Source of the DNA: Lachnospiraceae bacterium
GTDB lineage: Bacteria; Bacillota; Clostridia; Lachnospirales; Lachnospiraceae
DNA length: 64,000 nt
Reading direction: 5' to 3'
Assembly: GCA_017623215.1 (NCBI GenBank)
Contig: JAGAPO010000014.1
Coordinates: 243 to 64,242 of the forward strand
Shown here piece after piece: positions 4,515 through 60,520 of this stretch. The notes under the pieces are model-generated. The model ran no database searches and had not been told where the DNA came from. It was given only the letters and a program-made list of their open reading frames with translations. The stretch's first letter is position 1. Each line of letters opens with the position of its first letter. Position numbers and translations under genes: made by a program.

Positions 4515-4565
4515 ACAAAAGGCTTTGGTTTATTCGTGTAAAGAAGCTTGATTTTGTCCTATGTG

Positions 4566-4594: not shown

Positions 4595-4718
4595 GTCTTA
4601 AAAGCCGTACCTTCCTGTGTGGTACGCGCTTTTCCAGATATTCCATCGTGTGCAGTATATCCGCCAAATTTCAGAGATGAGAACAAATGAAAAAGCAAGT
4701 GAAAAAAACGACCGGAAC

Positions 4719-4742
4719 GGCAGATGGTCTGCCTCTTTTTCC
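4719..4742 (+). terminator. Leader terminator-like hairpin 2
   Basis: GGCAGA-tgg-TCTGCC followed by TCTTTTT, about 65 nt upstream of ATG 4806. Confidence 0.4.
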
Positions 4743-4805
4743 GTCTAAAACGAATCGAATGCCTGACGGCCCAATCATCGGCTGTCGGCAGAATGGAGGT
4801 TATTT

Positions 4806-6566: not shown

Positions 6567-6659
6567 TAACAGGGCGGAGTTCGTCCCTTTAGCCGGCTTC
6601 GCCTTCGCCGCAGGGACAGCGCATGCCCCGAACGTTACCTTAAAGGAGGTTGAGTATTT

Positions 6660-33566: not shown

Positions 33567-33888
33567 TATAATTCTCCTTTCATCAGTCCAATATACTGAT
33601 TGTACCATAAAATAGCAGTCAGTACAATTACTTCACGATTTTTTAATTCTTTTTTCAGGTTTCCCTGCGTCCATTCGCCTTTTTTATCAGAACTGTTTTC
33701 GGTATTTTCATATAATTTCCAAAAAAATTACGGAAAGCTGCAAAAATTATCCTCATACCTTTTCCCTGTTCTGGGATATACTTAATACAGTACATGGTCA
33801 GATGCGGCAGCATGTACCTGCCTGCCGCGATTCCGGAATCCTCTGCGGGATTCCCTTCCTACAACGCATCATATCAAGGAGGCCAATC

Positions 33889-36153: not shown

Positions 36154-36167
36154 AAGGGATTGCTTTT

Positions 36168-36213
36168 AAAATAGCCTTGATTCCAAGAAAACGCTTGGAA
36201 CCAAGGCTATTTT
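36168..36213. terminator. Bidirectional terminator between the convergent GH2 and GH28 genes
   Basis: aaaatagccttgattccaag / cttggaaccaaggctatttt, about 19 bp of stem with one bulged base, flanked by an A-run and a T-run. Confidence 0.7.
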
Positions 36214-37492
36214 AGCTCGTAATAGAAATATTGTCTCCATCAATCTCTGCCCCTCTCACATTCCGAATCCGCACATTCCGGAACACAGCCTCCTGCGCAT
36301 TCCGCACAAAGAATCCAGCGCCGGACATCGGTTTTAGCTGGCTCATCATCGCAGGAAGCCCGGGCTTCCCGTCCGGATCCATCGTAATGCTGACATCGGT
36401 AAGCGTGACATTTCGCACCGGCTGTTCCTTTAAGCCGTAGAGGAATCCCGCGGCTGCCGTCGCGCCGGTCACGGTGACATTGCTGATATGAACCTCGCGG
36501 ATTGCGGGTGTTCCCTCGTCAACGGGGTATGCCTCCTTATCCCAGACATACTTCTCCTGCCCGTCCGCGCCGCAGTTATAATACATATTAAATACGAACG
36601 GACACATCACTCTGTCCATAATAAGATTGCTCAAATGCAGATTCTCCACGATTCCCCCGCGCCTTCTGCGCGTCTTCACGCGAATCCCGCGGTCCGTATT
36701 CTGAAAGACGCAGTTGCTCACCGTTACATTGCGGATGCCTCCGCTCATCTCGCTGCCGATTACAATCCCGCCGTGTCCGTGAATCATCGTGCAGTTCGCA
36801 ATTGTAATATTCTCACACGGGCGGAGCCTTGGCGTCTTCTCGGTACCGGATTTGAGCGTAATACAGTCATCGCCCACATCGATCTGGCAGTTCAGAATTC
36901 TTACATTGCTGCAGCCGTCCGGGTTGATTCCGTCGGTATTCGGCGAATCGTACGGATTCTTAATCGAGACTCCAATCACCTCAACATCCCTGCAATACAA
37001 CGGATGCACCGTCCACGCCGGTGCATTTAACAGGGTCACCCCTTCTATTCTCACATGCTCACAATACTGAAATCCAATCAGATAGGGTCTTGGAAGCGCA
37101 AGCGTCCCGGTTCTGACCGCATTCCACCACGCCAAACCATTGCCGTTAATTATTCCGTCACCCTTTACCGCCACATGATGCGCGCAATCCGCGAATATAC
37201 ATGGCATATAGACATCCGAAGCAATCCCCTCGAATTCCCCTTGAACGATCTCATAATTCTCCTTATCATCCAGATAATACAGCTCTGCCCCTGCGTTCAG
37301 ATACAGCGTCGTATTGCTGTAAAGCTGAATGGAACGCGTCGGATAGCGCCCTGCCGGTACATAGAGCATACCGCCGCCTGCGGCGTCCGCGTCCTTTGCC
37401 GCGCGGCGGAACGCATCCGTCCAATCGCGTCCCTCTCGGCACGGTACTGTATCTTCCCGGTACTCTTTGATGTTATAAATCCCCTCCATCAT
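36212..37492 (-). CDS. GH28 polygalacturonase-family hydrolase
   Basis: The four GH28 blocks are present: NTDGINPDG, GDDCITLKSG, GHGGIVIGSE, RGIRVKT. Start at ATG 37492 with GGAG upstream. Confidence 0.85.
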   Translation of the reverse strand: MMEGIYNIKEYREDTVPCREGRDWTDAFRRAAKDADAAGGGMLYVPAGRYPTRSIQLYSNTTLYLNAGAELYYLDDKENYEIVQGEFEGIASDVYMPCIFADCAHHVAVKGDGIINGNGLAWWNAVRTGTLALPRPYLIGFQYCEHVRIEGVTLLNAPAWTVHPLYCRDVEVIGVSIKNPYDSPNTDGINPDGCSNVRILNCQIDVGDDCITLKSGTEKTPRLRPCENITIANCTMIHGHGGIVIGSEMSGGIRNVTVSNCVFQNTDRGIRVKTRRRRGGIVENLHLSNLIMDRVMCPFVFNMYYNCGADGQEKYVWDKEAYPVDEGTPAIREVHISNVTVTGATAAAGFLYGLKEQPVRNVTLTDVSITMDPDGKPGLPAMMSQLKPMSGAGFFVRNAQEAVFRNVRIRNVRGAEIDGDNISITS

Positions 37493-37531
37493 AACTCCTC
37501 TCCCGCTCGCGGCTTCCCAAGCCCGAAGCAC

Positions 37532-38680
37532 CTATACGTGTGTCAGGCTCTTTTTCCTGCTTTTCTCGTCATACATTGCCCTGTCGGCACGGATAAATGC
37601 ATTCTCCATTGCATTATTCTGTTCCAGATTCACCACGGCATATCCGGAGGAGAATGTACAGCCAATTTCCGAATTATTATCCGAGCTGTTCATAAAATCA
37701 ATCTTTTGCTCCAGTATCTCTTTTGGCACATTTAATGCGATGACGGCAAATTCATCTCCGCCGATTCTGAAAATTTCGTAATCGTCCCCGCAGAAAATAT
37801 TTTTAAGAAAATCCGCCGCTTTTTTCAGGGTTATATCCCCGACATGGTGTCCCAAGGTGTCATTGATTTTCTTAAAATTATCGAGGTCAATAACCATAGC
37901 ATACACCGTGTTCTCTTTATCCAGAGCTCTTTCCAATTCATTGATTTTCTCAAGGTATGCTGTACGGTTTTTCATCCCTGTCAGCGTATCCTGATACGCA
38001 ATTTTATGCCATTTTTTCTCATTTTGAAGCTGAATGTTTAAATCGTATAATCTTTTTTTCTGAAACAGAGTAACGATAAATACAACATAAAAGGAAATAA
38101 CGGTGAGCGAAATCAAGACATACACCGGGACATATTCCATTCTTTCGACCAATGGTTTCGGATAAGCTGACGCAAATACCATCAAGGCATAAATCAAAAT
38201 GGTGGAAATCATAAGAACACCCCAACCGTCCTGCACGCTTTCCAAAAGAACGCGGTATCGCGAAAAATACGGTCTGCATTTAAGATAGATGATAAGGAAC
38301 AGCAGGAACGCGAAAATACAGCTGATAATACCGCCAAGCGGGCCCGCAAAAACACCTGCCGCTCTTGCGAAAAAGGCAATCACAAGAGTTACGGTATCCA
38401 CAAAGCAAAAGGTCACAAAGAACCTGGCATCTTTATAGGCGGACAGAATCCAAAACAGAGTAAAGCTTGGAACCGTGATACATACAAAAGATGCCACAGA
38501 AGCGGCCAGATGAAAGACCTGTGTTCCCAAAATGTAGAACACAAAAAGGCTGACACAGCCTATATGCATAATGGTTCTGTAAACAAGGTTGTCTTTTTTT
38601 AATTTCGTTAGTTTTGCGTATATGACCAAATCAAATACTAATACAATAATATCACTTAATAAAGCAATCTTGTCCTCCAC
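37532..38680 (-). CDS. Membrane-anchored diguanylate cyclase (GGDEF domain)
   Basis: About 6 TM helices, then the GGDEF domain (RIGGDEFAV). GTG start as given in the track; the RBS is weak. Confidence 0.8.
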   Translation of the reverse strand: MEDKIALLSDIIVLVFDLVIYAKLTKLKKDNLVYRTIMHIGCVSLFVFYILGTQVFHLAASVASFVCITVPSFTLFWILSAYKDARFFVTFCFVDTVTLVIAFFARAAGVFAGPLGGIISCIFAFLLFLIIYLKCRPYFSRYRVLLESVQDGWGVLMISTILIYALMVFASAYPKPLVERMEYVPVYVLISLTVISFYVVFIVTLFQKKRLYDLNIQLQNEKKWHKIAYQDTLTGMKNRTAYLEKINELERALDKENTVYAMVIDLDNFKKINDTLGHHVGDITLKKAADFLKNIFCGDDYEIFRIGGDEFAVIALNVPKEILEQKIDFMNSSDNNSEIGCTFSSGYAVVNLEQNNAMENAFIRADRAMYDEKSRKKSLTHV

Positions 38681-38837
38681 AATATTCTATTGCCCCTTTC
38701 TTTTGTTAAATTCATCCCACATTCCTTTTCAGCGGGCCATGTTGCCCGCCTCATCGTCTTATTGGTCAAGTGTTGTATAGATACTGAGAGTTCTCCATTT
38801 GCTGTTATTTTTTTAAATATAGGTCTAATTATAAATT

Positions 38838-38865
38838 ATTATATCATGTACCCTGTTTTTGTCAA
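38838..38865 (-). promoter_or_regulatory. Putative promoter of the GGDEF gene
   Basis: Minus strand: TTGACA, 16 nt spacer, TGaTATAAT (extended -10). Confidence 0.5.
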
Positions 38866-39066
38866 GGGATTGGTCCTATTCCTCGGCGAGCACAATCGCC
38901 CCTCCCTGTACTGCTTCAGGAAAGACGCGGCCAATTGCGCTGCCTTTTTGTCCCTCATATCGGGAACTCTCGCCTCTGCCCGGCATCCACCCCTGTCGGG
39001 CAGGAATTCTTTGTAGCTTTCTCCTTATTATGAGGGATTTTTGCGTCATTGGCAATGACGGAGTTT

Positions 39067-41361
39067 TCACATTTTTGCCCGTTCTTCCCATTTTCGGCAC
39101 TGCGGTTCATATGTCATTCCAAAGTTCATCTCATAATAGTGTCCCGCCGCGTCTCTGTACGCATAGGCTTTTCCGTTCTCATCCTTCCGCTCGTCCGGCA
39201 TATATTGATCCTTATCATACCCCGGGACATCATTCGGGCTGATGCAGACGCCGTTCGCGTCAACCTTCAGAACCTCATCGTCCTTCGGAAGCGTAATCGG
39301 AAGTCTGCCGGACGGAACGAACTGCCCGAACATTACATCCAGCGTCGCGGATGGATACGTGTCGTAGCCTGCTGTCAGCGCATCCACGTAAGGCTCCACG
39401 CTGCCAAGCTGCCATGCGAGCGTGAAATTCACATTTGCAATTACTTTTCCGCCGTTACCGTGAACCGCCTGTGCGATCTGTGCGATGCGGCCAGCTCCGG
39501 TCAGCGTAGTCTCAAGATGCGTCTGCTCCGTTGGACGGCCTTCCTCGTCCACATTACATACCTCTTTGTCCTCGCAGATATCCAATTCCAGATATCCGGG
39601 CGTCGCATTGAAATATTCTCCCGACGACGGCGAAAGCATCAGGATTGCATAATCCGCCCCCGCCGGCTCCTCAACCAGTTCCCTATCTTTCAGCAGTTCT
39701 TTTAACTGCTTTGTCATCCGCTCCGCCATCTCCGGCCTCTTATGAAATGCTTCCGCATATACTCTCTTCCCCGCCAGCTTCTCCGCAGTAAGCGGCAGCG
39801 TGCCATCGTTCTTTAACAGTGTCACACTCTTACGGTGTGCATCCATCGCCTGCTCCCAGTATCGCTTCGTCACGGCGGTCTCTGCTGCCTTCACGGGATC
39901 ACGGTACGGATTCTCGAACATTCCAAGCTCGAACATCTCCGTTAAGGTTCTTGCAACCGCGCGGTTAAGCGCCTCATCGGTCAGTACCAATTCTTCCTTT
40001 GAGAATCCTTCCGGAACCGGATGCGTATCATAATAATCGTTCTTGCCCCTGCGGTAGGCCTCCATGCCGTATTCGTTGTCGAACAGACCGCTGATCACGT
40101 CCACACCGGCGTTATTTACGGCGAATCCGATGCGCTCCGGCTCTTCCAACATCTCGACGCCCCAATTCATGTTGTGGACAATTCCGGTATCCGAGTTAAT
40201 ATAACCCTCAAAGCCCATCTGCTTTCGAAGCAGTTCATCGAGGAACGGTCGGTTATAGGCAAAGCCGTATGGCTTCATCTCTATCGGATTCCCGTTCTTA
40301 TCAAGCTGTACCGCACTCTTTTCCTTCGCAGGCTTTGCATAATACGGCATGATGGAGGCCGCCTTACAGTCAACCGCTGTCTGGAAGCCGGGAAGGTGGT
40401 ATTTTTGCAGGCTTCCCTCGGTCTGATATACGTTCCACTGCCCCATCTTGTAATGCGGATCGAACCCGTTCTCTCTTGCTCCGCCTCCCGGGAAATGCTT
40501 CACGGTCATGGCTACGCCGTCCGCTGTCACCCCGTCCTCACTTCCCTGGATTCTCGGAATGATATGCCGGAGGATCTCACAGATCAATTCCGGATCCTCT
40601 CCAAAGGTACCGTAGGTCCGCTGCCAGCGCGGATCGGACATGACATCCGCCATATACATATACCCCTTGCGCAGCCCGGCCGAGTTCCAGGTGTCGCGCA
40701 CACAATCCGCGAACTCATCTGCAATCGCAATCCTATCCCCCTTAATTGCCGCCGCGATCCCCAACGTTCCCGGCCACGCCGGAAATACGCCGACCGCGTC
40801 ATTCATTCCGAATACCGCTTCTCCGTGCTCATTTCTGGAGTTCGAAGCCACGATCACCGGGACAAAATGTCTGCACTCCTCCGCAACCGCCTGAAGCTGA
40901 TTCAGATAATCCGTCATATCGTTCGGAGTCGGATTCGCCCGCAGAATCAGATGGCGTGCAAACCATTCTTTCAGCAGCACCGAGGTTCCCGGCAAATACT
41001 GGTCACCGAAGATCGTCTTGCCGCGAAACTCTCCCTCGTCCAATATACCGGATTCATCCAATTTGATATCCTTTGGATCAATCGGATTCATCGGGCCTTT
41101 GGGCGCCGGGTATTTTCCCATACGCCAATCGGAGATGAAAAGCTGCCCTATCTTCTCCTCGGTTGTTAACGTCTCCACATAGGCCTGCGCACGCTCCTTC
41201 GCGGGAATCCTCCAGTCATTGACCGCGCTTACCTCTCCGGTTCCGTCAATGTCCTTAAAGAACAGGCCGTCCTTCTCGATTATTTTGCGGGTCACCGTGC
41301 TGATTACAGGTCCGCCCTCGTTTGCATAATATTTCAGATGATCACTTGCTTTTACCGCCAT
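39067..41361 (-). CDS. GH3 family beta-glucosidase/xylosidase-type hydrolase
   Basis: KHFPGGGARENGFDPH and GYINSDTG (nucleophile region). Start set at ATG 41361 (MAVKASD) with GGAGAAGG upstream. Confidence 0.85.
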   Translation of the reverse strand: MAVKASDHLKYYANEGGPVISTVTRKIIEKDGLFFKDIDGTGEVSAVNDWRIPAKERAQAYVETLTTEEKIGQLFISDWRMGKYPAPKGPMNPIDPKDIKLDESGILDEGEFRGKTIFGDQYLPGTSVLLKEWFARHLILRANPTPNDMTDYLNQLQAVAEECRHFVPVIVASNSRNEHGEAVFGMNDAVGVFPAWPGTLGIAAAIKGDRIAIADEFADCVRDTWNSAGLRKGYMYMADVMSDPRWQRTYGTFGEDPELICEILRHIIPRIQGSEDGVTADGVAMTVKHFPGGGARENGFDPHYKMGQWNVYQTEGSLQKYHLPGFQTAVDCKAASIMPYYAKPAKEKSAVQLDKNGNPIEMKPYGFAYNRPFLDELLRKQMGFEGYINSDTGIVHNMNWGVEMLEEPERIGFAVNNAGVDVISGLFDNEYGMEAYRRGKNDYYDTHPVPEGFSKEELVLTDEALNRAVARTLTEMFELGMFENPYRDPVKAAETAVTKRYWEQAMDAHRKSVTLLKNDGTLPLTAEKLAGKRVYAEAFHKRPEMAERMTKQLKELLKDRELVEEPAGADYAILMLSPSSGEYFNATPGYLELDICEDKEVCNVDEEGRPTEQTHLETTLTGAGRIAQIAQAVHGNGGKVIANVNFTLAWQLGSVEPYVDALTAGYDTYPSATLDVMFGQFVPSGRLPITLPKDDEVLKVDANGVCISPNDVPGYDKDQYMPDERKDENGKAYAYRDAAGHYYEMNFGMTYEPQCRKWEERAKM

Positions 41362-41499
41362 ACCTTCTCCGTTCCGCCGTGTTCCCCCGCTACCGGCTGC
41401 ATTTGATTGGGGGATGCTGCAAACCGTACAGAAACTCCTAAGTTTTATCAGCATCCCCCTTATTCATTTTCTTATTAATCTGCTTCTTATCTTACCGGT

Positions 41500-43752
41500 T
41501 TACTTCTTAATCTGATTCAGCGCCGCGTTAAATCCAAGCATCTGCTCCTTGGTCAGCGGCTCCGAGCCCATCGTTCCCATCATGGACATCAGGCGCTTAA
41601 TCGTAAAGCCCGCCATGAAGCCCATCATCGCCTCATTCTCCATCATGGAGGAAGCGTCTATCATCCCTTCCTTACCGGCCATCGCAGATTTGAGAACATT
41701 CATAATCATCTCTCTGCCTGCCGGATTTGCCAACAGATCGCCCATCTTGTCGTTGATGGAGAAATATCCGTCCGGAGCGGTGATTTCAAACCAGTTTAAG
41801 ACATCGCCGGTCTCAACCATGCGATACGCGTCGTTGAACTTCTCTACCTTCACAATCCTGCTGGTATCCTCACACGCACCGGCCTTTGCAGCCAGTTCCG
41901 TGGTTCCCGCGTTCGGCACATCAAAATAGAAGAAATGCACATCGCTCGCCTGCTTTCCAAGGCTTACGCCGTTTGCGAACAGCTCAACCTCCGGAAGATT
42001 CGAGTATACCGTTACCTTCGTTACCTCCTCCACACGATCAACATAACGCTTGCCGCAGATGTGTACGAACGGCTCATCCGATAACCATGCCTTGTAGGCG
42101 TAGAACGCATCCTTTTTATATTTCCGGTCAAAGGTTACAAGACCCTTGTGGTTCATGCCGTCCTCGCCGCCCTCGGAACGCGCGTCTGCTGCGAAGTCGA
42201 ACATATTCCATACATGGGTTGCCCAGATATAAGGTCTGGTAAATAACTGCTTGATTAGCTCCTCATGGTAGTATGCCTGGTACTCCTCGGTGTAGTCGCC
42301 CTGCTCCGGATTGGAGGTGTGCCAGTTGAGCGCTTCACAGCCATACTCGCTCATACCGACCGGAAGATTCGGATGCGTCGCATGGAACTTATCTAACCAG
42401 GGACCGTTCATCGAGGTATCTCCTCCGTACCAGCCGAAATAGTGGTTCCACGATACGGTGTCCGGAATATTCACATACTCGCTGTCCATCGGACACATGG
42501 ATACAACCGCCATTGTGGTCTTTCTGGTCTTGTCCATCTCGTGGCACAGATCGTTCAAGATTCTGTGGTTCTCAAGCAGATCCGGGTCATCCGCGCCCTT
42601 CATGCTGATCTCATTGGAGAGCCCCCATACGAAGATGGATGCGTGATTATAGTTCTGCGTAATCAGCTCCTTCATCTGGGAAATGGTATTCTCCCGTCCG
42701 TTCGGCATATGATTCGAAATATACGGAATCTCTGCCCAGAGCACAAAGCCCATCTCATCGCACAGATCGTAGAAATACTGATTGTGCTGATAGTGAGCCA
42801 GACGAATTGTGGTCGCGCCCACCTCGCAGATCAACTCAAGGTCTTCCCTATGATGCTCCGGAAGCAGGGCGTTGCCGATCTCCGGTCTGTCCTGATGTCT
42901 GGATACGCCGCGAAGCGGGTACTCTTCGCCGTTCAGGATAAAGCCTCTGTCCGGATCAATCTCAAAGAAACGGCAGCCAAAACGAACGCATCTTGCGTCA
43001 AGCTCAGTCTCGCCATCCTTGAGAACCGCTTCCAGGGTATACAGGAACGGATCCTTACGTCCGTTCCAAAGGTGTACATTCTCGATCATCAAATCCGCTT
43101 TTCCTTCCGCCGCAGCCACCGTCTTTTTGGCAGCAACGGTCTCGCCGTCCTTAATAGTAAATGTAACCTCCTCCGTGCCGCTCAGCCCGGTGAAATACGC
43201 AGTTACATTCACCTCCGCATCCGCGCCCTGAACAATCGGGGTAACGGTAACGCCGGGGCCTCCGAAATAATCCAGATCAAAGCGGGTCTTCGGAACGCAG
43301 AGGATATTCACGTTCCGGTAAATACCGCCGTAGAAGGTAAAATCCGCCATCTGCGGATAAACTCTGTCATTGGGCGCATTATCCACTGCAACGACGATAT
43401 CATTCTCCTCCTCAAGAAGCTCCGTGATGTTGGCGCGGAAGGTCGAATAACCGCCGTCATGATGCACCGCAAGGGTTCCGTTCACAAAGACATCCGCGGA
43501 GGAGTTCGCTCCCTCGAACTCAAGATATACTTCCTGCGCATCTGCAAGAAGCGCTTTGTTCAGCTTCTTTGTATAGTAACAGGTTCCGCGGTAGTAGTCA
43601 CTTCCGCCGTCCTGTCCGTCTTTTCCGTTCCAGGTATGCGGCAAATCAACCGTTTCCCATGCATCCGCATTCAGCACGGTACGATTGTCTTTGACAAGCG
43701 CCGCGTCCTTTGTAAATAACCAAGATTCATTCCAGCTAAATTTTCTGCTCAT
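41500..43752 (-). CDS. GH2 family glycoside hydrolase, paralogue of 33889..36153
   Basis: LPHTWNGKDGQDG, RLAHYQHNQYFYDLCDEMGFVLWAEIPY, WGLSNEI, GMSEYGCEA. GGAGG lies 7 nt upstream of ATG 43752. Confidence 0.85.
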   Translation of the reverse strand: MSRKFSWNESWLFTKDAALVKDNRTVLNADAWETVDLPHTWNGKDGQDGGSDYYRGTCYYTKKLNKALLADAQEVYLEFEGANSSADVFVNGTLAVHHDGGYSTFRANITELLEEENDIVVAVDNAPNDRVYPQMADFTFYGGIYRNVNILCVPKTRFDLDYFGGPGVTVTPIVQGADAEVNVTAYFTGLSGTEEVTFTIKDGETVAAKKTVAAAEGKADLMIENVHLWNGRKDPFLYTLEAVLKDGETELDARCVRFGCRFFEIDPDRGFILNGEEYPLRGVSRHQDRPEIGNALLPEHHREDLELICEVGATTIRLAHYQHNQYFYDLCDEMGFVLWAEIPYISNHMPNGRENTISQMKELITQNYNHASIFVWGLSNEISMKGADDPDLLENHRILNDLCHEMDKTRKTTMAVVSMCPMDSEYVNIPDTVSWNHYFGWYGGDTSMNGPWLDKFHATHPNLPVGMSEYGCEALNWHTSNPEQGDYTEEYQAYYHEELIKQLFTRPYIWATHVWNMFDFAADARSEGGEDGMNHKGLVTFDRKYKKDAFYAYKAWLSDEPFVHICGKRYVDRVEEVTKVTVYSNLPEVELFANGVSLGKQASDVHFFYFDVPNAGTTELAAKAGACEDTSRIVKVEKFNDAYRMVETGDVLNWFEITAPDGYFSINDKMGDLLANPAGREMIMNVLKSAMAGKEGMIDASSMMENEAMMGFMAGFTIKRLMSMMGTMGSEPLTKEQMLGFNAALNQIKK

Positions 43753-43983
43753 TGCAACCTCCATTCCCTGCGCCCTGCGAATCAGGATCTCTGACCGATA
43801 TTAACCCGTGGAACCAACGGCAATCGTTCCACCTTTATCCTGTGTACCATTCTACAGGATTCTTCTTCCGATTATATCAAACCCCTGCTATTTGCACTTG
43901 AATAATTTTTTCATAAGTTGTATGATTTTTGTGTAAACGTTCAAGTTACTGTAAAATATTAACAATACGGAGCAAGCCAGACG

Positions 43984-52167: not shown

Positions 52168-52759
52168 ATGCCTATGAAGCACAAAGACGACCCAATTACG
52201 GCTACCATGACGTATGAGCAGTTAAAGTGGATTGTTCCGGAATCAACCAGGAGACCGTTCGAAGTCACCCGGAATTCCTGCATCGGGATCTGCATGTGAC
52301 TAACACTGGCCTCCTTCTTCCCTCGCTTGTTGATATCGTCTATCTTGAGTTAGACAAGTGTCTTTCTCAATGGGCGGCTGGTGTCTGCCCGGAGGAATAT
52401 GCGGAACTTGCGCTTTGGCTGTGTGCAATCGCGGATGTTAACCATCCAGTCTGAAATCGGTCTTTGACCAGACCGCTGTCATGGAGTCTATCAGGTCTGA
52501 GCTCGCCTTAATGGCGATGGACAGAGAGGAGATGGCACAAATTATGTTTGAAAAATACGAAAAGGATGTTCGCTATAGCGAGATTCAGTGTGCGGAGCGG
52601 AAAGGGAAAGTCACTGGTAAAGCCGAGGGCAAAATCGAGGAACAGAACCGCTTCCGAATTTTAATCGAAAAGATGGTTCAGGATGCTATGTCGGATCAAC
52701 TCACGCAACTTTCAGACCCCTGCTTTCTGGAACAGATGTATAAAAAATATAAGCTGTGA
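52168..52759 (+). pseudogene. Fragmented PD-(D/E)XK transposase-like (Rpn/TIGR01784-type) gene remnant
   Basis: Three consecutive short frames: 52168-52299, 52227-52454 and 52481-52759. The last carries a family-like tail (ERKGKVTGKAEGKIEEQNRF), and VYLELDKC is seen in the middle frame. Weaker match than the remnant at 26686. Confidence 0.4.
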
Positions 52760-53081
52760 TGATATCTTGGTATCGGAAGGAATCACACCATCTCCCGGAG
52801 TTTAGGGATACCCACCAAAAGCTCTCACATATTTTTGATTCAATTAATTCCGGATATGCATTGGAACATATATTTCTTTGTATATCCGGGATATTTTCTG
52901 CTCTCCATCTTGTTTTTTGTTTTAATTTGAATTAGTTTCTTATATATCTTATATTTTATTTTTATATTAATAAGGAAGTATATTTTATTTTAAAATCAAA
53001 ACACCTCGTCTCCAAACTGATGATATCCTATACTCACAAACAACGAACACCAATCATATTTCATCATGAAAGGAGATTCCT

Positions 53082-54707
53082 ATGAATATGCACAAGAACA
53101 CCTCAACAAATCAGAAGTCGAACCAGACTTTCAGCCTTCCGCTCTCCACCAAGCGTTCACGCCGCGGAAGAAGAGCTTCCAAGCTTACCTCCCACATTCT
53201 TTCTCTGCTGCTTGCAATTCTGTTAACTTGCCCGATCCCATCCGGTGAAGGCGGGCTGCCGCTCAGTATGACCGCAAGCGCCGCAGGACAGGTCATTGCC
53301 GACGGCACTTACGCGATTTTACTTCACGACGATCAGAGCAAATGTCTCAACGACCTTTTCGCTTCGACCGCAGAAGACAAAGCACAGCTTGGGGTCGATC
53401 CCTTCAATCATGAATCCAACGAGATCTGGATTATCGTCAACCGCGGAGACGGCTATGTAACCATTTCTCCGAGCCACGCTCCGAACCTTTGCATCAATGC
53501 GCTGCTTGCAAATAAGACACCCGGCGATTATCTGACACTCCATGGCTGGACAGAAGGGGACGCCGCAAGTCTCTGGCTTCCCATCCGCAACTCTGACGGC
53601 AGCTATACCTTCCGCAACAAGGCGACAAATCTTGTTATTGACTGTAAGGACGGTTCCTATACAACGGGCAATAAGTTCTTAAGCTGGACGAAGAACGGCT
53701 ACGCCAGAGCACAGTCCTTCTATCTGAAGCAGCTTTCCGGCGGCTCAGATTCGGCTTCTTCTTCCCTGAAGAGCGGCACTTACGCGATTCTGCTCCATGA
53801 CGACCAGAGTAAATGCCTCAACGACCTTTTTGCTTCGACCGTGGAAGACAAGGCTCAGCTCGGTGTCGATCCCTTCAATCATGAGGCGAACGAGATCTGG
53901 ATCATTACCGTGCGCGACAACAATTATGTAACCATTTCTCCGAGCCACGCTCCGAACCTTTGTATCAATGCGCTGCTCGCGAACAAGACCCCCGGTGATT
54001 ATCTGACACTTCATGGCTGGACGGAAGGGGACGCTGCAAGTCTCTGGCTTCCCATTCTGAACGCTGACGGCAGCTATACCTTCCGCAACAAAGCGACAAA
54101 TCTTGTTATTGACTGCAAGGATGGTTCCTATACAACGGGCAATAAGTTCTTAAGCTGGACAAAGAACGGCTACGCCAGAGCACAATCCTTCTATTTGAAG
54201 GAAGTCACTGTCGACACCTGGGTATACCCGATGACCAATACCTATGTCTGCGGAAATGACTGGTCCGAGTATTACTCCCCCCGCGCAAAGGCAGGCCGTC
54301 CCGATCACGTCGGTATTGACATTGCCTCTTCCTCTGGCAGTACCGCAATATGCGCTGCAGCGGACGGATATGTAGAAAGTGTCGGCACGAACTCAAGCAA
54401 CGGCAAATACGTGATTATCCGCCATACCCTGAACGGCAAAACCGTGTACTCCTTCTACGCGCATTTATCCAAGATTACCGTATCGGCAAGGACTACCGTG
54501 TCGAAAGGCACACAGGTCGGCGTCCTTGGCGGAAGCGGTTCTTCCTCTGACGGCACTCACCTGCATTTTGCAGTCACGGATACTCTGTGGAGCAACGGCG
54601 GTTACTATGGTTATGTGTCCAGCTTCAGTGGAAATAAGGTGACGTACGGCGGCGTAACTTTTTATAATCCGCATTATGTAGTAGAGCATAACGCGCTGCC
54701 GAACTAA
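53082..54707 (+). CDS. Secreted protein: two ricin-type beta-trefoil lectin-like modules plus a C-terminal M23 metallopeptidase
   Basis: Signal-peptide-like N-terminus (KLTSHILSLLLAILLTCPIP). Two modules of about 142 aa with near-identical sequence. M23 motifs PDHVGIDI and GTHLHFAV. AAAGGAGA upstream of ATG 53082. Confidence 0.8.
   Translation: MNMHKNTSTNQKSNQTFSLPLSTKRSRRGRRASKLTSHILSLLLAILLTCPIPSGEGGLPLSMTASAAGQVIADGTYAILLHDDQSKCLNDLFASTAEDKAQLGVDPFNHESNEIWIIVNRGDGYVTISPSHAPNLCINALLANKTPGDYLTLHGWTEGDAASLWLPIRNSDGSYTFRNKATNLVIDCKDGSYTTGNKFLSWTKNGYARAQSFYLKQLSGGSDSASSSLKSGTYAILLHDDQSKCLNDLFASTVEDKAQLGVDPFNHEANEIWIITVRDNNYVTISPSHAPNLCINALLANKTPGDYLTLHGWTEGDAASLWLPILNADGSYTFRNKATNLVIDCKDGSYTTGNKFLSWTKNGYARAQSFYLKEVTVDTWVYPMTNTYVCGNDWSEYYSPRAKAGRPDHVGIDIASSSGSTAICAAADGYVESVGTNSSNGKYVIIRHTLNGKTVYSFYAHLSKITVSARTTVSKGTQVGVLGGSGSSSDGTHLHFAVTDTLWSNGGYYGYVSSFSGNKVTYGGVTFYNPHYVVEHNALPN
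53304..54201 (+). repeat. In-frame tandem duplication (period 471 nt) encoding the two lectin-like modules
   Basis: 53304-53730 aligns base for base with 53775-54201. Scattered substitutions are mostly synonymous transitions. Confidence 0.85.
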
Positions 54708-54776
54708 GCATTTTGAACGCACCAAATTTCATACCATGTTTTTTCCTAATTATATAGATTCCTCCTCTTGAAGAGA

Positions 54777-54824
54777 AAGAGCTCCAAAGGTTGATGTGAC
54801 TGACCCTTGGAGCTCTTTCCTTTC
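54777..54824. terminator. Bidirectional terminator between the lectin-M23 gene and the kinase-NACHT gene
   Basis: aaagagctccaa / ttggagctcttt 12-bp perfect stem, followed by CCTTTCC. Confidence 0.6.
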
Positions 54825-54918: not shown

Positions 54919-57900
54919 TCATTTCGGCTTTTTTCTATTCCTGTGAAGGTTGAACATCACAACCCTTATTAGGGTGGACCAGTTATGGAACCAGAGCTCA
55001 TCCATCTCCATCAGTCTTCTTATCATAGAGTGGCTGCAGAACTCTGCGTATTCCGGCTCCGGCTTTTTCCACACCTCTCCGTCTTCTTCATACTCGGTCT
55101 CTTCCTCCGGCAGATCCAGTGCTGTTCTCATTCCTCTTGCCTGCCGAAGCCACCGCATCGCTGTCTCATGATCTTTTTCCACCGCAAATCCCAGTTCATA
55201 ACACATCCCGATCAGCTTCTGCATTTCCACGTTTCCGAATTCAGCGCACAGTTCCATCCAGCCCGTTTCCTCCTGAAAATATTCTGACCGAACCGTAAGA
55301 AGAATATTACCGGGCAGCCAAAAGGCCTGGCCCGCACAAATATCCCTGTGCCTGTTCAGGAACTCCCGCAGTTCCCTGCTTAACTCGTCTGGCTGCCAGA
55401 TACGAACAAATCTGTCATTATCCATGGTATGCTCCATCAGTCCGCGCCATATTTCGGCAATTCTTGGAGGCCAGGCGTGATTCATACGCACAAGCGGTCT
55501 GGGATCGTCTTCTTCCAGCGCACTCTGCAGGCCCTCTGCAATCCACATTCCTGCGAAATAGTCCATGTAACAGTCGTGTACGAACCGGTAGTTCTCGTCT
55601 CCGTCATAATCCAGAATCGCAAGTCGGCGCACACATACATCCAGAATCTCGGCGAATTTCCACAGCAGAAGACGGCGGTTCCCGCAGGCTTCCCTTACCC
55701 AGCTTTCCAGCTCCTGCTCCGTATGTACCGCCTGATCCGATATCAGATAGTGATATCCGATAACCGGGAGATATTTTTCCAGAATCTGATGAATGTTCCT
55801 GCCCGTATCCCCGTATTCGTATTCTGCGAAATAGATGCTTAAAAGCTCCGCTGCGCTATTGGGTATTTCGTCGTAGTCGTCATAGTCTTCCTCATAATCG
55901 TCCTCTTCGCCGACTTCCTTTCCGACCTCGTCCTCTTCGCTGGCTTCCTCTTCGTCTTTCTCCCAATCGCCGCCGCAATCCTCTGATTTTTTCGCATAAT
56001 ACCGATCCGAGCCCGCCAGAATCTCCAGATAGCGCATCAGGAACAGAGGGAGCTTCAGCGTGTCATACTGCTGCCCAAGCCGTGCAAGCTCACGCCAATC
56101 CAGCCTTCGGTTCAGCGTCTGCTCCACTGCGCTTTGAATCTGCTCTTTGGTAAGCGGTACAATCCGAATTCGACATTCCGGCCGCAGCATTCTGACATAG
56201 GGCAGCGGCTCGTTACAGGACAGCGGCCGCAGCTGCTCCATGCCGAACTCCATGCTCCCCAATCTCTGTGGATCCTCCTCGCGGCCCGAGACAAGAATCC
56301 AGGTCCCTTTGTAGGTACGATCGGCGTGGTCGAGCGCGGCAAGTGCCTTCGCGTATATTTTTTCGGATACCTTATGCAGATTATCGAGCGCCAGAAAGAA
56401 ACGCGTCTCCCTGGCTTCTTTTACCTCCGTTCCTTCCGATAATAGACTCTCGATTTCTTCGCATATCTTCTCGTCCGCCGTATCCAGATATTGTACGGCA
56501 AGCATCCTCGCAATCGCCCGCTCCGGTGAGCCGGCCTCTTTTAGAAGCTTCTCCGTGAAGCCCAGCATATCCAGATAAAGCGGAATGCGTTTCCCGCTCT
56601 CCAGATACTCGCAGAATAACTCGGAGACCGCAAAGCTTTTGCCGCCTCCGCCGGGCGCCTGCAAATACCGGTTCGCGTTTGCCGGTTCTTCTCCCCACGT
56701 TTCGTCCAGTTCCAAACCTTCCAGCCCTCCCCATTCCTCTTCCTTAGGGGCCGCCTGCGCGTTCTCCGGAGCAAGTCTGCGCAGCAATTCTCCTACCGGA
56801 ATCGCCTCGCCCTCTTCCTGCTCCGCATCCTCTTCCTGCTCCGCATAAATCGTCAGCCGTCTCACCGCCAGCTCTTTTGTCAGTCCCGGCTGATGCTCCG
56901 TCGCGAACAGCTGGCGATTCTTCTTATAATAACGGATGGATGCTTCCCACAGATGCTCCGCCGTCACTCCCTTCGATAGTTTGAGCTTCCTTACCCGGTC
57001 AAATGTGCGAAGTGCCTCTCTCATCTCCCCGGCGTCCGCGTAACGCTCCTTCGGATCGTTGGCAAGCGCCTTTTTCAGAATCCGGTTCAGCATCCATTTT
57101 TCCGCAGAATCACAGCCAAGCCGTTCCGCCTGCCGTTCTGACAAGAGCTTTTCCTTCGGATGCAGCATCAGGAATTCCGTCATCTCCTCTTCTCCGAGTT
57201 CGATAAGCTCATCTTCTTTCCCTGTCAGCAGATTCAGAAGCAAAAATCCAAGCGACCACACATCGCATGCCGGCGACATTCGAAAATCCGCTCCCCGCTC
57301 CAAAAGCTCCGGTGCCCGATAGCCGTCCGTTGAGAAGATTTCATCTGTGATAATCTCTGTGTATCTTCCGTCCGTCAGTCTCCTTGCCGAACCGAAATCA
57401 ATAATATGAGCGGTTCCGGAGAACACCCCCGCCTCTCCCGCGCGGTTTCCCAACAGAAAGATATTATCGGCCTGGCAGTCCCCGTGAATATATCCGTCCT
57501 CGTGAAGCGCCGCGTAGGCGTCAAGGACCGTATGCATGATTAACACTGCAGTATCCAGGGGCAGACCTTCTCCCTGCGCCGTTTTCCCTTCTCTGCGATA
57601 CCGTCCCGCCGTGATTCCCTTCTCCGTCAGACTCTCCATCCGGGCATAGCTGTTCGTTACCGCCGGGTACACGGTTCCGTCCGGCAGGCAGATATTCGCC
57701 TGCTCATAGACCGGAGACTGAATTGGAATCACCTGATAATTCTTCCGGCTCGCCATCTGACCGAACGCTGCCTCCTGTGTGCATAGCTGCTCCTTTCGCT
57801 TTCCAAGTGCCGAGGCACGCACCCGGCAAAGCGCTTCCGAACCATCCGGAACGATTTCCCCGTTCACACGCTGGTACCCTTCTGCCGGATATATCTCCTT

Positions 57901-58044
57901 AATCGCCGCGTACAGCTCGGAATCCAACTCCTTTGCCTCATACAAAAGCGCGCTTCCCCCGCCTCCAATCAGGCCGAGGATCTTATACCTGCGTCCGTCC
58001 GGGAATTCCAGAACGCTTCCGTTCATTAATTCAGTTCTGCTCAT
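54919..58044 (-). CDS. Ser/Thr protein kinase fused to a NACHT-like STAND NTPase and a C-terminal helical/Sel1-like region (1041 aa)
   Basis: Kinase motifs: G-loop LIGGGGSALLYEA, AAIKE (K49), HGDCQADN (D189/N194), DFG (216-218), YRAPE. NTPase motifs: Walker A APGGGGKS (463-470; nt 56635-56658), Walker B FFLALDNLH, ILVSGRE (NACHT TSR-like), LPLFLMRYLEIL. Sel1-like segment: EMQKLIGMCYELGFAVEKDHETAMRWLRQA. AGGGAGGA lies 6 nt upstream of ATG 58044. Confidence 0.8.
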   Translation of the reverse strand: MSRTELMNGSVLEFPDGRRYKILGLIGGGGSALLYEAKELDSELYAAIKEIYPAEGYQRVNGEIVPDGSEALCRVRASALGKRKEQLCTQEAAFGQMASRKNYQVIPIQSPVYEQANICLPDGTVYPAVTNSYARMESLTEKGITAGRYRREGKTAQGEGLPLDTAVLIMHTVLDAYAALHEDGYIHGDCQADNIFLLGNRAGEAGVFSGTAHIIDFGSARRLTDGRYTEIITDEIFSTDGYRAPELLERGADFRMSPACDVWSLGFLLLNLLTGKEDELIELGEEEMTEFLMLHPKEKLLSERQAERLGCDSAEKWMLNRILKKALANDPKERYADAGEMREALRTFDRVRKLKLSKGVTAEHLWEASIRYYKKNRQLFATEHQPGLTKELAVRRLTIYAEQEEDAEQEEGEAIPVGELLRRLAPENAQAAPKEEEWGGLEGLELDETWGEEPANANRYLQAPGGGGKSFAVSELFCEYLESGKRIPLYLDMLGFTEKLLKEAGSPERAIARMLAVQYLDTADEKICEEIESLLSEGTEVKEARETRFFLALDNLHKVSEKIYAKALAALDHADRTYKGTWILVSGREEDPQRLGSMEFGMEQLRPLSCNEPLPYVRMLRPECRIRIVPLTKEQIQSAVEQTLNRRLDWRELARLGQQYDTLKLPLFLMRYLEILAGSDRYYAKKSEDCGGDWEKDEEEASEEDEVGKEVGEEDDYEEDYDDYDEIPNSAAELLSIYFAEYEYGDTGRNIHQILEKYLPVIGYHYLISDQAVHTEQELESWVREACGNRRLLLWKFAEILDVCVRRLAILDYDGDENYRFVHDCYMDYFAGMWIAEGLQSALEEDDPRPLVRMNHAWPPRIAEIWRGLMEHTMDNDRFVRIWQPDELSRELREFLNRHRDICAGQAFWLPGNILLTVRSEYFQEETGWMELCAEFGNVEMQKLIGMCYELGFAVEKDHETAMRWLRQARGMRTALDLPEEETEYEEDGEVWKKPEPEYAEFCSHSMIRRLMEMDELWFHNWSTLIRVVMFNLHRNRKKPK

Positions 58045-58093
58045 AAGTTATCCTCCCTTGCCGCCGCTATCCTATCGCGGGCATCCCCGTTCT

Positions 58094-59554
58094 CTACCGG
58101 CCCTTTCGCGGCGCTGCCCGCATAATTTCCGGTACAAATGCCAGCGGATCTTTGCTGCACACAGCCGTCAGAATCATATGCTCAAACGGATTCGCCGCAT
58201 ATATCTGCGGCAATCCGGCCTTTAACAGCAGCCGGTCCGTCGAAGAATGAAAGCTCTGCAGCAGCTCATAATGCTCCTTTGGCGTCAATGCGGAAAAGTC
58301 CACCGACATCCCCAGTTTGTATAATCGAAGCATCAGAAAATCCTTCTTCGTAATCGTCTCCCGCGGGGTCTTTCTGCTCTTCTCCGTCTCCGCATCCTCC
58401 TCGAATAAGACACTTCTCAAATGCGCTCCGTCCAGAAGATTGGCGGTAATTCTCCGATCCAGATCGATTTCGCTGATTCGGAATGGCTGTTGCTCGTCTT
58501 CCCAGTCCTCACCCTCGTCCTCATCCGGATCCAGTCCTACCCCTTCGATTAAGATCCGATAAATCTCATTTCCGATGGTATTGTTGCTCGTCAGCACATT
58601 CGTCCGGCGGTTCAGACTGTCCTCGCTCTCCTCGTAACGTCTTAGCTTCACACCGCTCACCAGGCTGCTTCGCACCACCGAATAGTCCAGATACAGCACC
58701 TTCTCCGATTCCAGCTCTTCGTTCAAAAGCTTCCTCGCTGTCCGGCTGTATTCAGTGAACTGCTCCGCATTCTCCGCCAGATACTCCACGAAGGCCTCCT
58801 TCATCGCCTCGTCATCCGAGAATTCCCCGTAGGTGATATCATCAATTCCGCGCCGAAGAAGGCGGGTCTGCAGCGCGGGCCGTTCGTCCGGCAGGCTCCT
58901 CTTTTTTAACGCCTCCCCGTATTCCCGCAGAATTCCCCGCACTGCCGTCATTGTATGGTACGCCTCGTTATTATGGCAAAAATAATAGATACACTCTAAT
59001 ACGTTCCGGAAATTGTACACCGGGCTTTCCCCCACCGCATTCATAAAGTCATCCATATCTGCCGAATCGAAGCCGAGCGCCATGGACATCACAAATAGCA
59101 GCTTCCTGGAGATCGCCTTATTCTCAAGGTAAGTCAGATATAATTTTTTGGAGATTGCTCCTGCCTTTGGGTTCACCACCCCTTCTTTATTCATTGAAAA
59201 GCATTCATTCTCTACGGTAATCCGATACAGCAGGTCCGCGTAGGCCTCCTTTTCCTGCCCGGTCAATTCCGCCGCCGGAGTCACCGCATGGAAGGAATAG
59301 GTCTTTCCGCCCGCCGACATGGTGAACGGAACCGGCTCTTCTTCCCTGCCGCGCCCGGTCCCGTGCTCATACAGATATCGCCTCAGACAGAAGCTCAGGC
59401 TGTTCCACTCGGCCTCATTCTGTAGCACCGCCGCATATTCTTTTATCGTCTCTGTCTCCGCAAGACGCGAATTCACCTGAGCAAGCTTCTTCCTCCACTT
59501 ATTCTCAAGCTCCGCCTGCGTCTTTCGGGTGATACTGCTGCCATATTGATTCAT
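58094..59554 (-). CDS. Uncharacterised 486-aa, predominantly helical protein (no family recognised)
   Basis: ATG 59554 overlaps the PP2C stop (ATGA), giving MNQYGSSITRKTQAELENKW.... The upstream part of track ORF 58094..59677 overlaps the PP2C gene and is discounted. Confidence 0.7.
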   Translation of the reverse strand: MNQYGSSITRKTQAELENKWRKKLAQVNSRLAETETIKEYAAVLQNEAEWNSLSFCLRRYLYEHGTGRGREEEPVPFTMSAGGKTYSFHAVTPAAELTGQEKEAYADLLYRITVENECFSMNKEGVVNPKAGAISKKLYLTYLENKAISRKLLFVMSMALGFDSADMDDFMNAVGESPVYNFRNVLECIYYFCHNNEAYHTMTAVRGILREYGEALKKRSLPDERPALQTRLLRRGIDDITYGEFSDDEAMKEAFVEYLAENAEQFTEYSRTARKLLNEELESEKVLYLDYSVVRSSLVSGVKLRRYEESEDSLNRRTNVLTSNNTIGNEIYRILIEGVGLDPDEDEGEDWEDEQQPFRISEIDLDRRITANLLDGAHLRSVLFEEDAETEKSRKTPRETITKKDFLMLRLYKLGMSVDFSALTPKEHYELLQSFHSSTDRLLLKAGLPQIYAANPFEHMILTAVCSKDPLAFVPEIMRAAPRKGR

Positions 59555-60384
59555 CGGCACGTCCTTCCTTTCTTTTCCGGAATTCCCTCCTGCACTGGCA
59601 GTACCGTCAGATCCAGATACGGCACGGATGTGCAGTGAATCGCAATCATGCTGTAATCGTCCGGAGGTCCCTCCCATTCTGCATTCTGAAGTCTGTCCGC
59701 GAATTCCTCTTCCCAGGCAGGCCCGGTGGAATTCGCCAGATCATAGCCGCAGACCGGATCGATCTCATATCCATTCCACAAATATCTTGTGCAACCGTCG
59801 GACATCAGGAAAAATGAGGTGTCCGTCACATATTTTCCCCGATAGACCCGCGTACGGCGAATGCAGTGCTTCGACGAGGTCAGAACCGTGAACTGCCTGG
59901 TAATCCCGCTCTCCGGCGCGGAAAGCAGCCGCATTCGCTTCCCGGCCAAATCCTTCGAGGCACAGGCCGCAAGTCCGTCCCCAAGATGAAGACACAGGAA
60001 TCTCCCATCCCGGGTATCCACGACCAGAACCAGCAGGGTAGAGCCCAGCTCCTCCAGGCATTCCCTCAGGCCTAAGATTGCGGAATGCTCCCGAAGCTCC
60101 GCAAGAACCTTCCCCATAACCTCCTCTTTTACCGTTCCGATGCTCTCCCTCTCATAATAGCGTTCAAACGAATTCATCACATCCGTACACGCGCTCCGGC
60201 ACGCGACCTCTGCTCCAAGCCCTCCGTATCTCGCGCTTCCTGCACCATCCGCAAGCGCAATTCCATACAGACTCCCCGCTATTTTACTATAGATCCGATC
60301 CTGATTCGGCTCTCCGTTCTGACTATGGATGGCCCCCACCCTTGAAAACGATCGGATCGTTCGAACAACTCTCCGCATTCCCAC
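59551..60384 (-). CDS. PP2C-family (PP2C_2-type) Ser/Thr protein phosphatase
   Basis: SQNGEPNQDRIY...YGIALADGAGSARYGGLGAE and LLVLVVDT...LHLGDG...FFLMSDG are typical of bacterial PP2C_2 proteins. GTG 60384 lies 7 nt after AAAGGAGAA. Confidence 0.75.
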   Translation of the reverse strand: MGMRRVVRTIRSFSRVGAIHSQNGEPNQDRIYSKIAGSLYGIALADGAGSARYGGLGAEVACRSACTDVMNSFERYYERESIGTVKEEVMGKVLAELREHSAILGLRECLEELGSTLLVLVVDTRDGRFLCLHLGDGLAACASKDLAGKRMRLLSAPESGITRQFTVLTSSKHCIRRTRVYRGKYVTDTSFFLMSDGCTRYLWNGYEIDPVCGYDLANSTGPAWEEEFADRLQNAEWEGPPDDYSMIAIHCTSVPYLDLTVLPVQEGIPEKKGRTCR

Positions 60385-60520
60385 TGTAGTTCTCCTTTCT
60401 GGTCTTATTTTGATATCTACAGTCTAACACAGAGAGTCTGTCGCCCTGTTTCCATATTCAAATACAACTGCCGCGGCTTCAGACCCGATCGGTTCCGAAT
60501 CCGCGGCAGCCTCTTCCCTG

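Follow-up and report, generated by a model that had tools for sequence, protein, structure and literature searches.

Within a 64,000-nt stretch of DNA from a Lachnospiraceae bacterium (contig JAGAPO010000014.1), referred to here at its full length as the window, an operon of three genes on the minus strand, read from 60384 to 54919, encodes a PP2C phosphatase, a protein designated X, and a kinase-STAND protein. This operon is best read as NOD-like receptor (NLR)-like STAND signaling joined to kinase/phosphatase control of transcription and centered on a protein family, X, without a known relative. It is proposed that a STAND-gated kinase/PP2C switch acts on X with a transcriptional output, which would most likely control the adjacent cell wall hydrolase; this proposal is tentative, one that may well be correct but that falls somewhat short of being probable. 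What appears to be new is the X family, its pairing with a kinase, and its fusion to σ70; kinase-NACHT and kinase-STAND fusions are already known. In the literature no description was found of the X family, its pairing with kinase fusions, or X-σ70 fusions, and no PADLOC, Pfam, NCBIfam or PHROG model covers the system beyond generic kinase matches. Thus, the view of an earlier note on this DNA, that the system is undescribed, appears correct.

The operon and the domains of its products are as follows:

59551-60384, minus strand: PP2C_2-family Ser/Thr phosphatase of 277 aa (Pfam PF13672, E 8e-30), the first gene of the operon
58094-59554, minus strand: protein X, 486 aa, of an undescribed family, the genomic partner of the kinase fusion
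59528-59530, minus strand: codon of Thr9 of X, within a hydrophobic-Thr motif in a disordered N-terminal tail
54919-58044, minus strand: kinase-STAND protein of 1041 aa (Hanks kinase, STAND NTPase, helical region, one residual Sel1-like repeat)
56995-57987, minus strand: kinase domain, approximately residues 20-350 (Pkinase E 4.8e-20 over residues 161-336)
55552-56682, minus strand: STAND-type P-loop NTPase, approximately residues 455-831, with helical and winged-helix modules and NACHT-like motifs
55138-55215, minus strand: single Sel1-like repeat, residues 944-969 (Pfam Sel1 E 0.0012, 19.8 bits against a cut-off of 30.7)

All three open reading frames (ORFs) are intact, and the ORF listing agrees with the positions given for them in the earlier note. 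The PP2C gene starts with GTG, 7 nt downstream of an AGGAG; its stop codon overlaps the start codon of X as ATGA; and a gap of 49 nt, with a GGAGG ribosome-binding site (RBS), separates X from the kinase gene. The overlap and the gap with its strong RBS, both remarked upon previously, can be read directly in the sequence. The three genes are translationally coupled and are bounded by hairpins. Since no hydrophobic or transmembrane (TM) segment is present in PP2C, X or the kinase protein, all three products are taken to be cytoplasmic.

The partnership of X with a kinase recurs across related loci. Sixteen independent loci were inspected, 14 of which have enough flanking sequence for the partnership to be counted. 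At 12 of these 14, a Hanks-kinase fusion is encoded no more than 2.5 kb from X, and the stop and start codons often overlap. The module fused to the kinase takes several forms:

Window clade: kinase, NACHT-like NTPase and Sel1
L019 (Clostridium butyricum): kinase, NB-ARC and TPR, in a PP2C-X-kinase operon
L023: kinase, NB-ARC and TPR, beside a type IV secretion system (T4SS) coupling protein and a Tox-GHH/SUKH pair
L028: kinase, NB-ARC-like module and Sel1
L026 and L027: kinase, TIR and a WD40/PQQ propeller
L008: kinase only (335 aa), with nothing fused

Because the fused module varies between loci, the constant pair is the kinase and X. PP2C is found at only five of the approximately 16 loci (the window, L011, L016, L019 and L028); it is facultative, and the constant unit is X together with the kinase fusion. 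Hence, of the three-gene unit that had been suggested at first, the linkage of X to the kinase holds and that of PP2C does not.

Several of these loci have features of their own. The kinases at L026 (2494-6909) and L027 (1505-3370) are close to the window kinase (HMM E 5e-62 and 4e-52, respectively), with TIR and the propeller replacing STAND; at L026 the kinase fusion is separated from the X homologue by genes for a YARHG protein and a C39-like peptidase. At L013 (8001-19351) X is missing: the gene for a kinase-STAND homologue precedes a Metallophos gene, after which comes a gene for a small protein with two TM helices (2-TM), and this cassette directly adjoins a type III CRISPR-Cas locus (Cas6, RAMPs, Csx19) with an integrase near. 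Upstream of the L019 operon (1-7000), an HSP70-like protein, NrdD, thymidylate kinase and an AAA_33 kinase are encoded, together with a dynamin-like GTPase that has two partners lacking annotation; this group of genes may represent another accessory or conflict cluster.

An indication of what X does comes from natural fusions. In three proteins (P0072, P0078 and P0084), each from a different 50%-identity cluster, a complete X module precedes an equally complete RpoD-like σ70 with regions 1.2, 2, 3 and 4. One such fusion, of 866 aa, is encoded at L028 (7526-10126) between a PP2C_2 gene and a gene for a kinase-NB-ARC-like-Sel1 protein, so that the gene order is that of the window: PP2C_2, X-σ70, kinase-STAND-Sel1. 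Fusion of two genes within an operon that otherwise stays the same has classically been taken as a sign that their products are functionally coupled, and the X-σ70 fusion suggests that transcription would be the output. After the L028 kinase gene come RNase_T and a secreted SH3/RicinB-lectin protein; on the opposite strand are genes for a T4 gp30.3-like protein (phrog_652) and a NUDIX protein. For ECF43 it is established that Hanks kinases phosphorylate sigma factors directly (PknS/EcfK and PknT/EcfP; PMC13147305).

The 486-aa form of X is identical to a database protein (P0001, 100% identity and coverage); a 527-aa reading of the same ORF is not supported, since homologues align from the Met of the 486-aa form. 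Close relatives of X form 19 clusters among 5.8 billion proteins, and X occurs at a single locus in a set of 185,579 species representatives (in a Lawsonibacter metagenome-assembled genome) and at three loci in a JGI metagenome scan. These numbers answer a question that the earlier note had raised, whether the operon is a core locus conserved in synteny: it is not core. The wider family, collected by a profile search that used no word index, comprises 513 representatives at E<=1e-3, of which 105 reach E<=1e-10; most are 400-500 aa long. X has no match in Pfam, NCBIfam, PADLOC or PHROG; no Pfam family is common to more than one of the 61 members scanned, at E<=1; and comparison of the X profile with PDB sequences gave nothing below E 0.05. 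The AlphaFold2 model of X, built from an alignment of 19 sequences (predicted local distance difference test score, pLDDT, 81; predicted template modeling score, pTM, 0.79), is mainly helical with a few short hairpins, and Foldseek found no neighbor for it in either PDB or BFVD (best E 1.7 and 2.0, respectively). Thus, the middle protein is, as the earlier note had described it, without a recognizable domain, and the check proposed there for a match to a known family yields none in Pfam, NCBIfam, PADLOC, PHROG or PDB.

Specific identities for X were also considered and rejected. A known helix-turn-helix or other family was set aside because Pfam, PDB profile and Foldseek searches were all null, and a cryptic sigma factor because comparison by hhalign with the sigma portions of the fusion proteins returned a probability of 0.03. 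By eye, and as an impression only, residues 136-195 show an Xre-like helix pattern. One X-family protein outside the window (P0048, 746 aa) is fused to a Mutator-family transposase domain (PF00872, 5.4e-7). The remaining candidate was a von Willebrand factor A (vWA) domain of the TerY type, which would make the operon a divergent TerY-P triad with a cryptic vWA protein in the middle. Such triads, of kinase, PP2C and vWA proteins, have been described in conflict contexts, and the operon does have three genes that include a kinase and a PP2C. However, none of the 61 X members has a vWA match in Pfam, the X model is helical rather than Rossmann-like and finds no vWA protein with Foldseek, and X contains no DxSxS motif. 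The triad explanation is therefore almost certainly incorrect, and the judgment in the earlier note that the middle protein is not vWA is upheld.

One short segment of X suggests how the kinase might act upon it. A hydrophobic-Thr motif is present 5-25 residues from the N-terminus, and among 61 diverse members the motif position is Thr in 58 and Ser in two. A hydrophobic-Thr dipeptide lies within the first 27 residues in 89% of X members, compared with 38% in other windows of the sequence. In the model, residues 1-17 have a pLDDT below 50 and are left disordered. Thr9 of X is thus a candidate phospho-acceptor.

The 1041-aa protein has a database twin, P0020, named "protein kinase [Lachnospiraceae bacterium]", and its non-kinase part is represented by eight clusters in the protein search. 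The N-terminal domain is a Hanks-type Ser/Thr kinase: in addition to the Pkinase match, all of the catalytic motifs are present, and GGGGSA, K49, HGD187-189, N194, DFG216-218 and APE244-246 are invariant in nine homologues. A conserved insert of about 100 residues lies between the β3 Lys49 and the C-lobe, and among proteins of solved structure the best relative found with the family profile is PknB. A word-index search with the kinase N-terminal domain, made for fusion diversity, returned five matches, mostly truncated. The linker that follows (residues 342-432, about 56749-57021) shows a faint, below-threshold match (E 0.022) to CTD10 of ABC-3C conflict systems.

The central domain of this protein belongs to the STAND superfamily. 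Walker A (GGGGKS465-470), Walker B (LALDN551-555) and a conserved Arg (GR587-588) are invariant or nearly so in nine homologues, and they are followed by helical and winged-helix motifs (LPLFLMRYLE665-674 and, with its His, RFVHDCYxxYFA820-831). By itself, the window protein gives no significant NTPase match and no NACHT match; at the level of the family, Pfam finds AAA_16 in five of seven members (best 1.9e-6) and NACHT in two of seven (3.6e-4). Foldseek matches the STAND model to NLRC4 (7.8e-4), Apaf-1 (1.4e-3), NOD2 (1.7e-3) and MalT (1e-2), all with a probability of >=0.95; the top matches also include ORC/Cdc6, and the TM-scores are low. The STAND assignment is solid. Membership in NACHT is weak; an FxHxxxQEYFAA-like motif resembles NACHT by eye, and the relatives at L019, L023 and L028 are NB-ARC-like. 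Inside the helical region of STAND, the window protein contains an acidic low-complexity insertion (EDCGGDWEKDEEEASEEDEV...YDDYDE, about residues 688-727, 55900-56000) that the other eight aligned homologues lack; beyond the GR motif (about residues 595-625), some homologues carry an insertion of another kind.

At the C-terminus, homologues carry four to five Sel1 repeats after the position of residues 944-969, and the family profile matches solved Sel1 proteins at 1e-37. A Sel1-repeat sensor is therefore found in the homologues and not in the window copy, which is C-terminally shortened, with the predicted sensor region truncated. The fusion of kinase, NACHT and Sel1 that had been described earlier can accordingly be restated: the kinase and a STAND NTPase stand, NACHT is weak, and Sel1 amounts to one repeat below threshold.

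The phosphatase retains the metal-site motifs NQD, ADGAGS, SDG and DDYS, which are kept in its four orthologues (L011, L016, L019 and L028). With its profile match and these acidic metal-binding motifs, it is a member of the PP2C (PPM) family and looks to be active. A Metallophos protein is present at L011, which also has PP2C, and at L013 (47% identity between the two), and a PHP protein is present at L001, L005, L014 and L017 (39-55% identity). Metallophos and PHP are both phosphoesterase superfamilies. Recurring as they do in loci that mostly have no PP2C, these proteins may serve as alternative phosphatases.

Adjacent to the operon in the window is the following gene:

53082-54707, plus strand: secreted protein with two RicinB-lectin modules and an M23 peptidoglycan endopeptidase (RicinB_lectin_2 8.4e-22, Peptidase_M23 5.8e-20)

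Both this enzyme and the SleB-like neighbor on the other side of the operon have N-terminal anchors, that of the M23 enzyme being residues 32-50. Within the M23 gene there is a direct duplication of 300 nt (53303-53602 and 53774-54073, 86% identity, 471-nt spacing) that gives rise to the two near-identical RicinB-lectin modules and that appears to reflect a relatively recent tandem duplication of the targeting domain. Genes for similar enzymes are found beside the module at other loci:

Window, L005, L008, L014, L015 and L017: RicinB and M23
L016: SH3 and M23
L019: Amidase_3 and choline-binding repeats
L011: RicinB and a weakly NlpC/P60-like C-terminus (best PDB relative a cell wall hydrolase, E 0.0098)
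L028: SH3/RicinB and an unassigned C-terminus

In addition, SleB-like Hydrolase_2 genes are nearby in the window and at L011, and at L005 an SH3_3 protein occupies that position. Because non-homologous catalytic domains swap in the same position, a functional link is favored over mere synteny, and from this recurrent linkage the M23 enzyme is a probable functional associate or output of the module.

At most loci the hydrolase gene comes directly after a gene for a small TM protein. These small proteins, of 130-190 aa, have an acidic, coiled-coil-like N-terminus and two C-terminal TM helices, and their genes flank the hydrolase gene or come after the Metallophos gene:

L005: 12702-13094 and 14653-15120
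L014: 5494-6072 and 7788-8327
L017: 6908-7429 and 9260-9763
L011: 5882-6343
L013: 12185-12667

Searches found no family matches for them; they could be holin-like, immunity or anchoring proteins.

The clustering of hydrolases (M23, SleB-like Hydrolase_2, Amidase_3, NlpC/P60-like) around the module in most loci is also what would be expected of a cell envelope regulator, housekeeping or developmental, in which the kinase and phosphatase control hydrolase export or activity directly, through phosphorylation of the hydrolases or of their membrane partners, and X is a scaffold with no role in transcription. Such a role would fit the arrangement at L005, L014, L015 and L017, where the hydrolase and 2-TM genes lie downstream of the kinase gene in the same orientation, separated by short gaps, and a report on PrkC and CwlA in Clostridioides difficile describes a precedent for kinase control of hydrolase export (PMC8262956). 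However, the hydrolases are secreted by a Sec-type route and their mature parts are extracellular, whereas the kinase is cytoplasmic. Furthermore, this explanation accounts neither for the X-σ70 fusion nor for the loci that have no hydrolase at all (L023, L026 and L027), and the module is far too rare for a general role in the envelope. Direct control of the envelope is therefore rather improbable.

The STAND-gated switch would work as follows. Binding of a ligand at the C-terminal helical/Sel1 region of the 1041-aa protein would lead to nucleotide exchange and oligomerization, which would bring the N-terminal Hanks kinase domains together and activate them. The kinase would then phosphorylate its dedicated partner X, for which Thr9 in the flexible tail is the candidate site, and phosphorylated X would act on the σ70/RNA polymerase machinery. 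PP2C would take the phosphate off X and thereby keep the system off or reset it. The most likely target would be the neighboring secreted lectin-peptidoglycan hydrolase, resulting in regulated lysis or the release of a bacteriolysin. We infer X as the substrate, and with it the phospho-site, the effect on RNA polymerase, the target genes and the trigger; the last could be phage, a cell wall signal or something else. A more elaborate version would be an NLR-to-transcription pathway, in which a receptor kinase with swappable sensors would detect a phage protein or a cell wall fragment and would signal through X, an adaptor of new fold, to σ70 and hydrolase release, with PP2C as the brake and with programmed lysis or attack on neighbors as the outcome. 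As a joint claim, this version is unlikely.

A number of observations weigh against the proposed switch. All of the support for it is comparative. X is without similarity to sigma factors or to any DNA- or RNA polymerase-binding family, and therefore the link to transcription rests on one type of fusion, inspected at one locus (L028). In the window the M23 gene is convergent with the operon and is not co-transcribed with it, and the hydrolase linkage within the close subfamily could in part be inherited synteny, because the divergence of PHP parallels that of X and because genes for DegV and Glt_symporter recur in the flanks. The window holds no homologue of the 2-TM, PHP or 129-aa accessory genes. 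Finally, the STAND model is of low confidence (pLDDT 58.6), and a protein that is without most of the Sel1 repeats may be deregulated or decaying.

The surroundings of the operon bear upon a role in defense. Its neighbors in the window are genes for glycoside hydrolases, a GGDEF protein, a P-type ATPase and a HAD hydrolase. The region from 33802 to 43764 contains a glycoside hydrolase cluster (two GH2, GH3 and GH28) along with GGDEF, an ordinary context of carbohydrate utilization. A PADLOC search of the neighborhood gave no meaningful matches. The window copy is not in a defense island; its neighbors are those of carbohydrate metabolism, among which PADLOC finds no defense genes. With PADLOC-DB v2.0.0, the C-lobe of the kinase matches the PD-T4-6, mad6, MkoA and Stk2 models, as a generic kinase only; X and PP2C have no PADLOC matches, and the operon is not assigned to a described anti-phage system. 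In tblastn searches of 50,697 phage and 72,556 plasmid records the window X has no match, P0047 and P0053 have no match in plasmid records (for these two, plasmids only were searched), and X has no relative in IMG/VR and no match among the PHROGs.

The main competing explanation of the operon is abortive infection directed against phage or other mobile genetic elements: the NLR module would sense the invader, the kinase would be the toxic effector, phosphorylating numerous proteins of the host or the phage in the manner of Stk2, PP2C would be a safety catch, and X would be a co-sensor or adaptor. The kinase clade is indeed fused to modules of an immune type (STAND with repeats, TIR with WD40), its distribution is rare and patchy, and Ser/Thr/Tyr kinases are already among the effector domains listed for bacterial NACHT proteins. 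Some loci also lie near mobile or conflict genes, namely the T4SS coupling protein and Tox-GHH/SUKH pair at L023, the type III CRISPR-Cas and integrase at L013, IS110 and an integrase at L001, and a DNA methylase at L021. The four PADLOC kinase models that match the window kinase could be counted in favor as well, but these matches cover the generic C-lobe and extend to neither X nor PP2C, the window neighborhood is metabolic, and X is not found in the phage, plasmid, IMG/VR or PHROG collections. Moreover, a kinase that serves as the toxin leaves both the X-σ70 fusion and the hydrolase linkage unexplained. For these reasons, abortive infection is somewhat unlikely. Given the fusion and the recurring hydrolases, the idea put forward in the earlier note, that the kinase is the effector of an NLR, stands as regards the fusion and probably fails as regards the terminal effector. 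The abortive-infection and transcriptional explanations differ mainly in the trigger and in the terminal effector, and they could be combined.

The hairpins that flank the operon are the following:

60466-60511, minus strand: GC-rich hairpin (minimum free energy -33.4 kcal/mol, z -3.97), 3' of the upstream SleB-like gene
54770-54824: long inverted repeat between the convergent kinase and M23 genes (22-nt arms, 86% complementary)

On the minus strand, both fold far better than shuffled controls, and folding places the flanking hairpins noted earlier at these positions. The first separates the SleB-like gene from the operon. The second forms an 18-bp stem on both strands and is likely a bidirectional terminator. 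A simple scan for terminators called neither of the two hairpins because they lack a clean T-run. Beyond the M23 gene, the AT-rich junction that the earlier note had reported beside the operon, along with the secreted lytic enzyme, is confirmed (GC content 0.37 at 52500-52999); positions 52880-53000, upstream of the M23 gene, are very AT-rich and contain promoter-like hexamers. An Rpn-type fragment reported in this region was not confirmed: the two short ORFs in 52170-52760 have no Pfam match at E<=0.01.

Possible mobile-element debris and this AT-rich junction adjoin the M23 gene, which raises the question of whether the operon is a decaying, non-functional relic, left by a rearrangement that inverted the M23 gene and deleted Sel1 repeats and accessory genes. 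The presence of approximately one Sel1 repeat in place of four to five, the acidic low-complexity insertion, and the absence from the window of 2-TM, PHP and 129-aa homologues are all in keeping with decay. Nevertheless, the three frames run uninterrupted for 1804 codons and retain all of their catalytic motifs, the translational coupling and RBSs are preserved, and a shortened form persists elsewhere, as the 335-aa kinase-only partner of X at L008. A relic is thus quite improbable.

If the STAND-gated switch acting on X is correct, the operon would represent, for the first time in bacteria, a counterpart to the receptor-kinase-transcription logic seen in eukaryotic innate immunity, and it would provide a function for a family of proteins, at least 500 sequence clusters in size, that has neither an annotation nor a structural relative. 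In addition, gut Clostridia may possess a controllable lysis or bacteriolysin module, as the recurrent pairing with secreted, lectin-targeted hydrolases suggests; this would be of interest for microbiome ecology. Those NLR-like proteins of bacteria that have been characterized act on the cell directly, killing or arresting it by means of a fused nuclease, NADase or protease. The window protein resembles the bNACHT/Avs proteins in having an N-terminal enzyme, a central STAND NTPase and C-terminal repeats, with folds matching NLRC4, NOD2 and Apaf-1. However, the characterized bNACHT/Avs members are single genes that use nuclease, NADase or protease effectors and have no X-family partner or PP2C, whereas the window protein is weakly NACHT and lies outside a defense island.

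Other known systems share one or more parts with the operon. The fusion of a kinase to a MalT-like STAND module has been recorded since 2005, as PknK of mycobacteria (PMC1262709). PknK resembles the window protein as a cytoplasmic kinase with a STAND NTPase and helical repeats, which in PknK are TPRs, and MalT is among the fold matches of the latter; however, PknK belongs to another phylum, Actinobacteria, and the similarity is limited to generic kinase and P-loop features. PknK-type kinases are not known to have an X partner, an operonic PP2C or a linkage to hydrolases. Stk2 and PD-T4-6 share the Hanks kinase domain, as their PADLOC models detect in the window C-lobe, but these systems are without a STAND module, X or PP2C, so that the homology is that of kinases in general; Stk2 reportedly phosphorylates many host or phage proteins. 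The TerY-P triads likewise consist of three linked genes with a Hanks kinase and a PP2C, differing in that the third protein here is not vWA and lacks the metal ion-dependent adhesion site (MIDAS).

Two systems that regulate sigma factors provide parallels to the proposed output. In the partner-switching modules (RsbW/RsbV/RsbU-P and SpoIIAB/SpoIIAA/SpoIIE), as is proposed here, a kinase, a PP2C phosphatase and a phospho-protein together decide the activity of a sigma factor. These modules use GHKL-type kinases and STAS-domain substrates, in contrast to the Hanks-type kinase of the window and to X, which has no STAS or other Pfam match. In the ECF43 systems, a Hanks kinase gene is paired with a transcription factor that is its substrate and that contains a conserved Thr switch (PMC13147305), which parallels X, the X-σ70 fusion and Thr9. 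However, the ECF43 substrate is itself a small extracytoplasmic function (ECF) sigma factor and its kinase is a membrane receptor, whereas in the system described here the sigma factor, where present, is RpoD-like and follows an X module of approximately 500 residues, and the kinase is gated by STAND.

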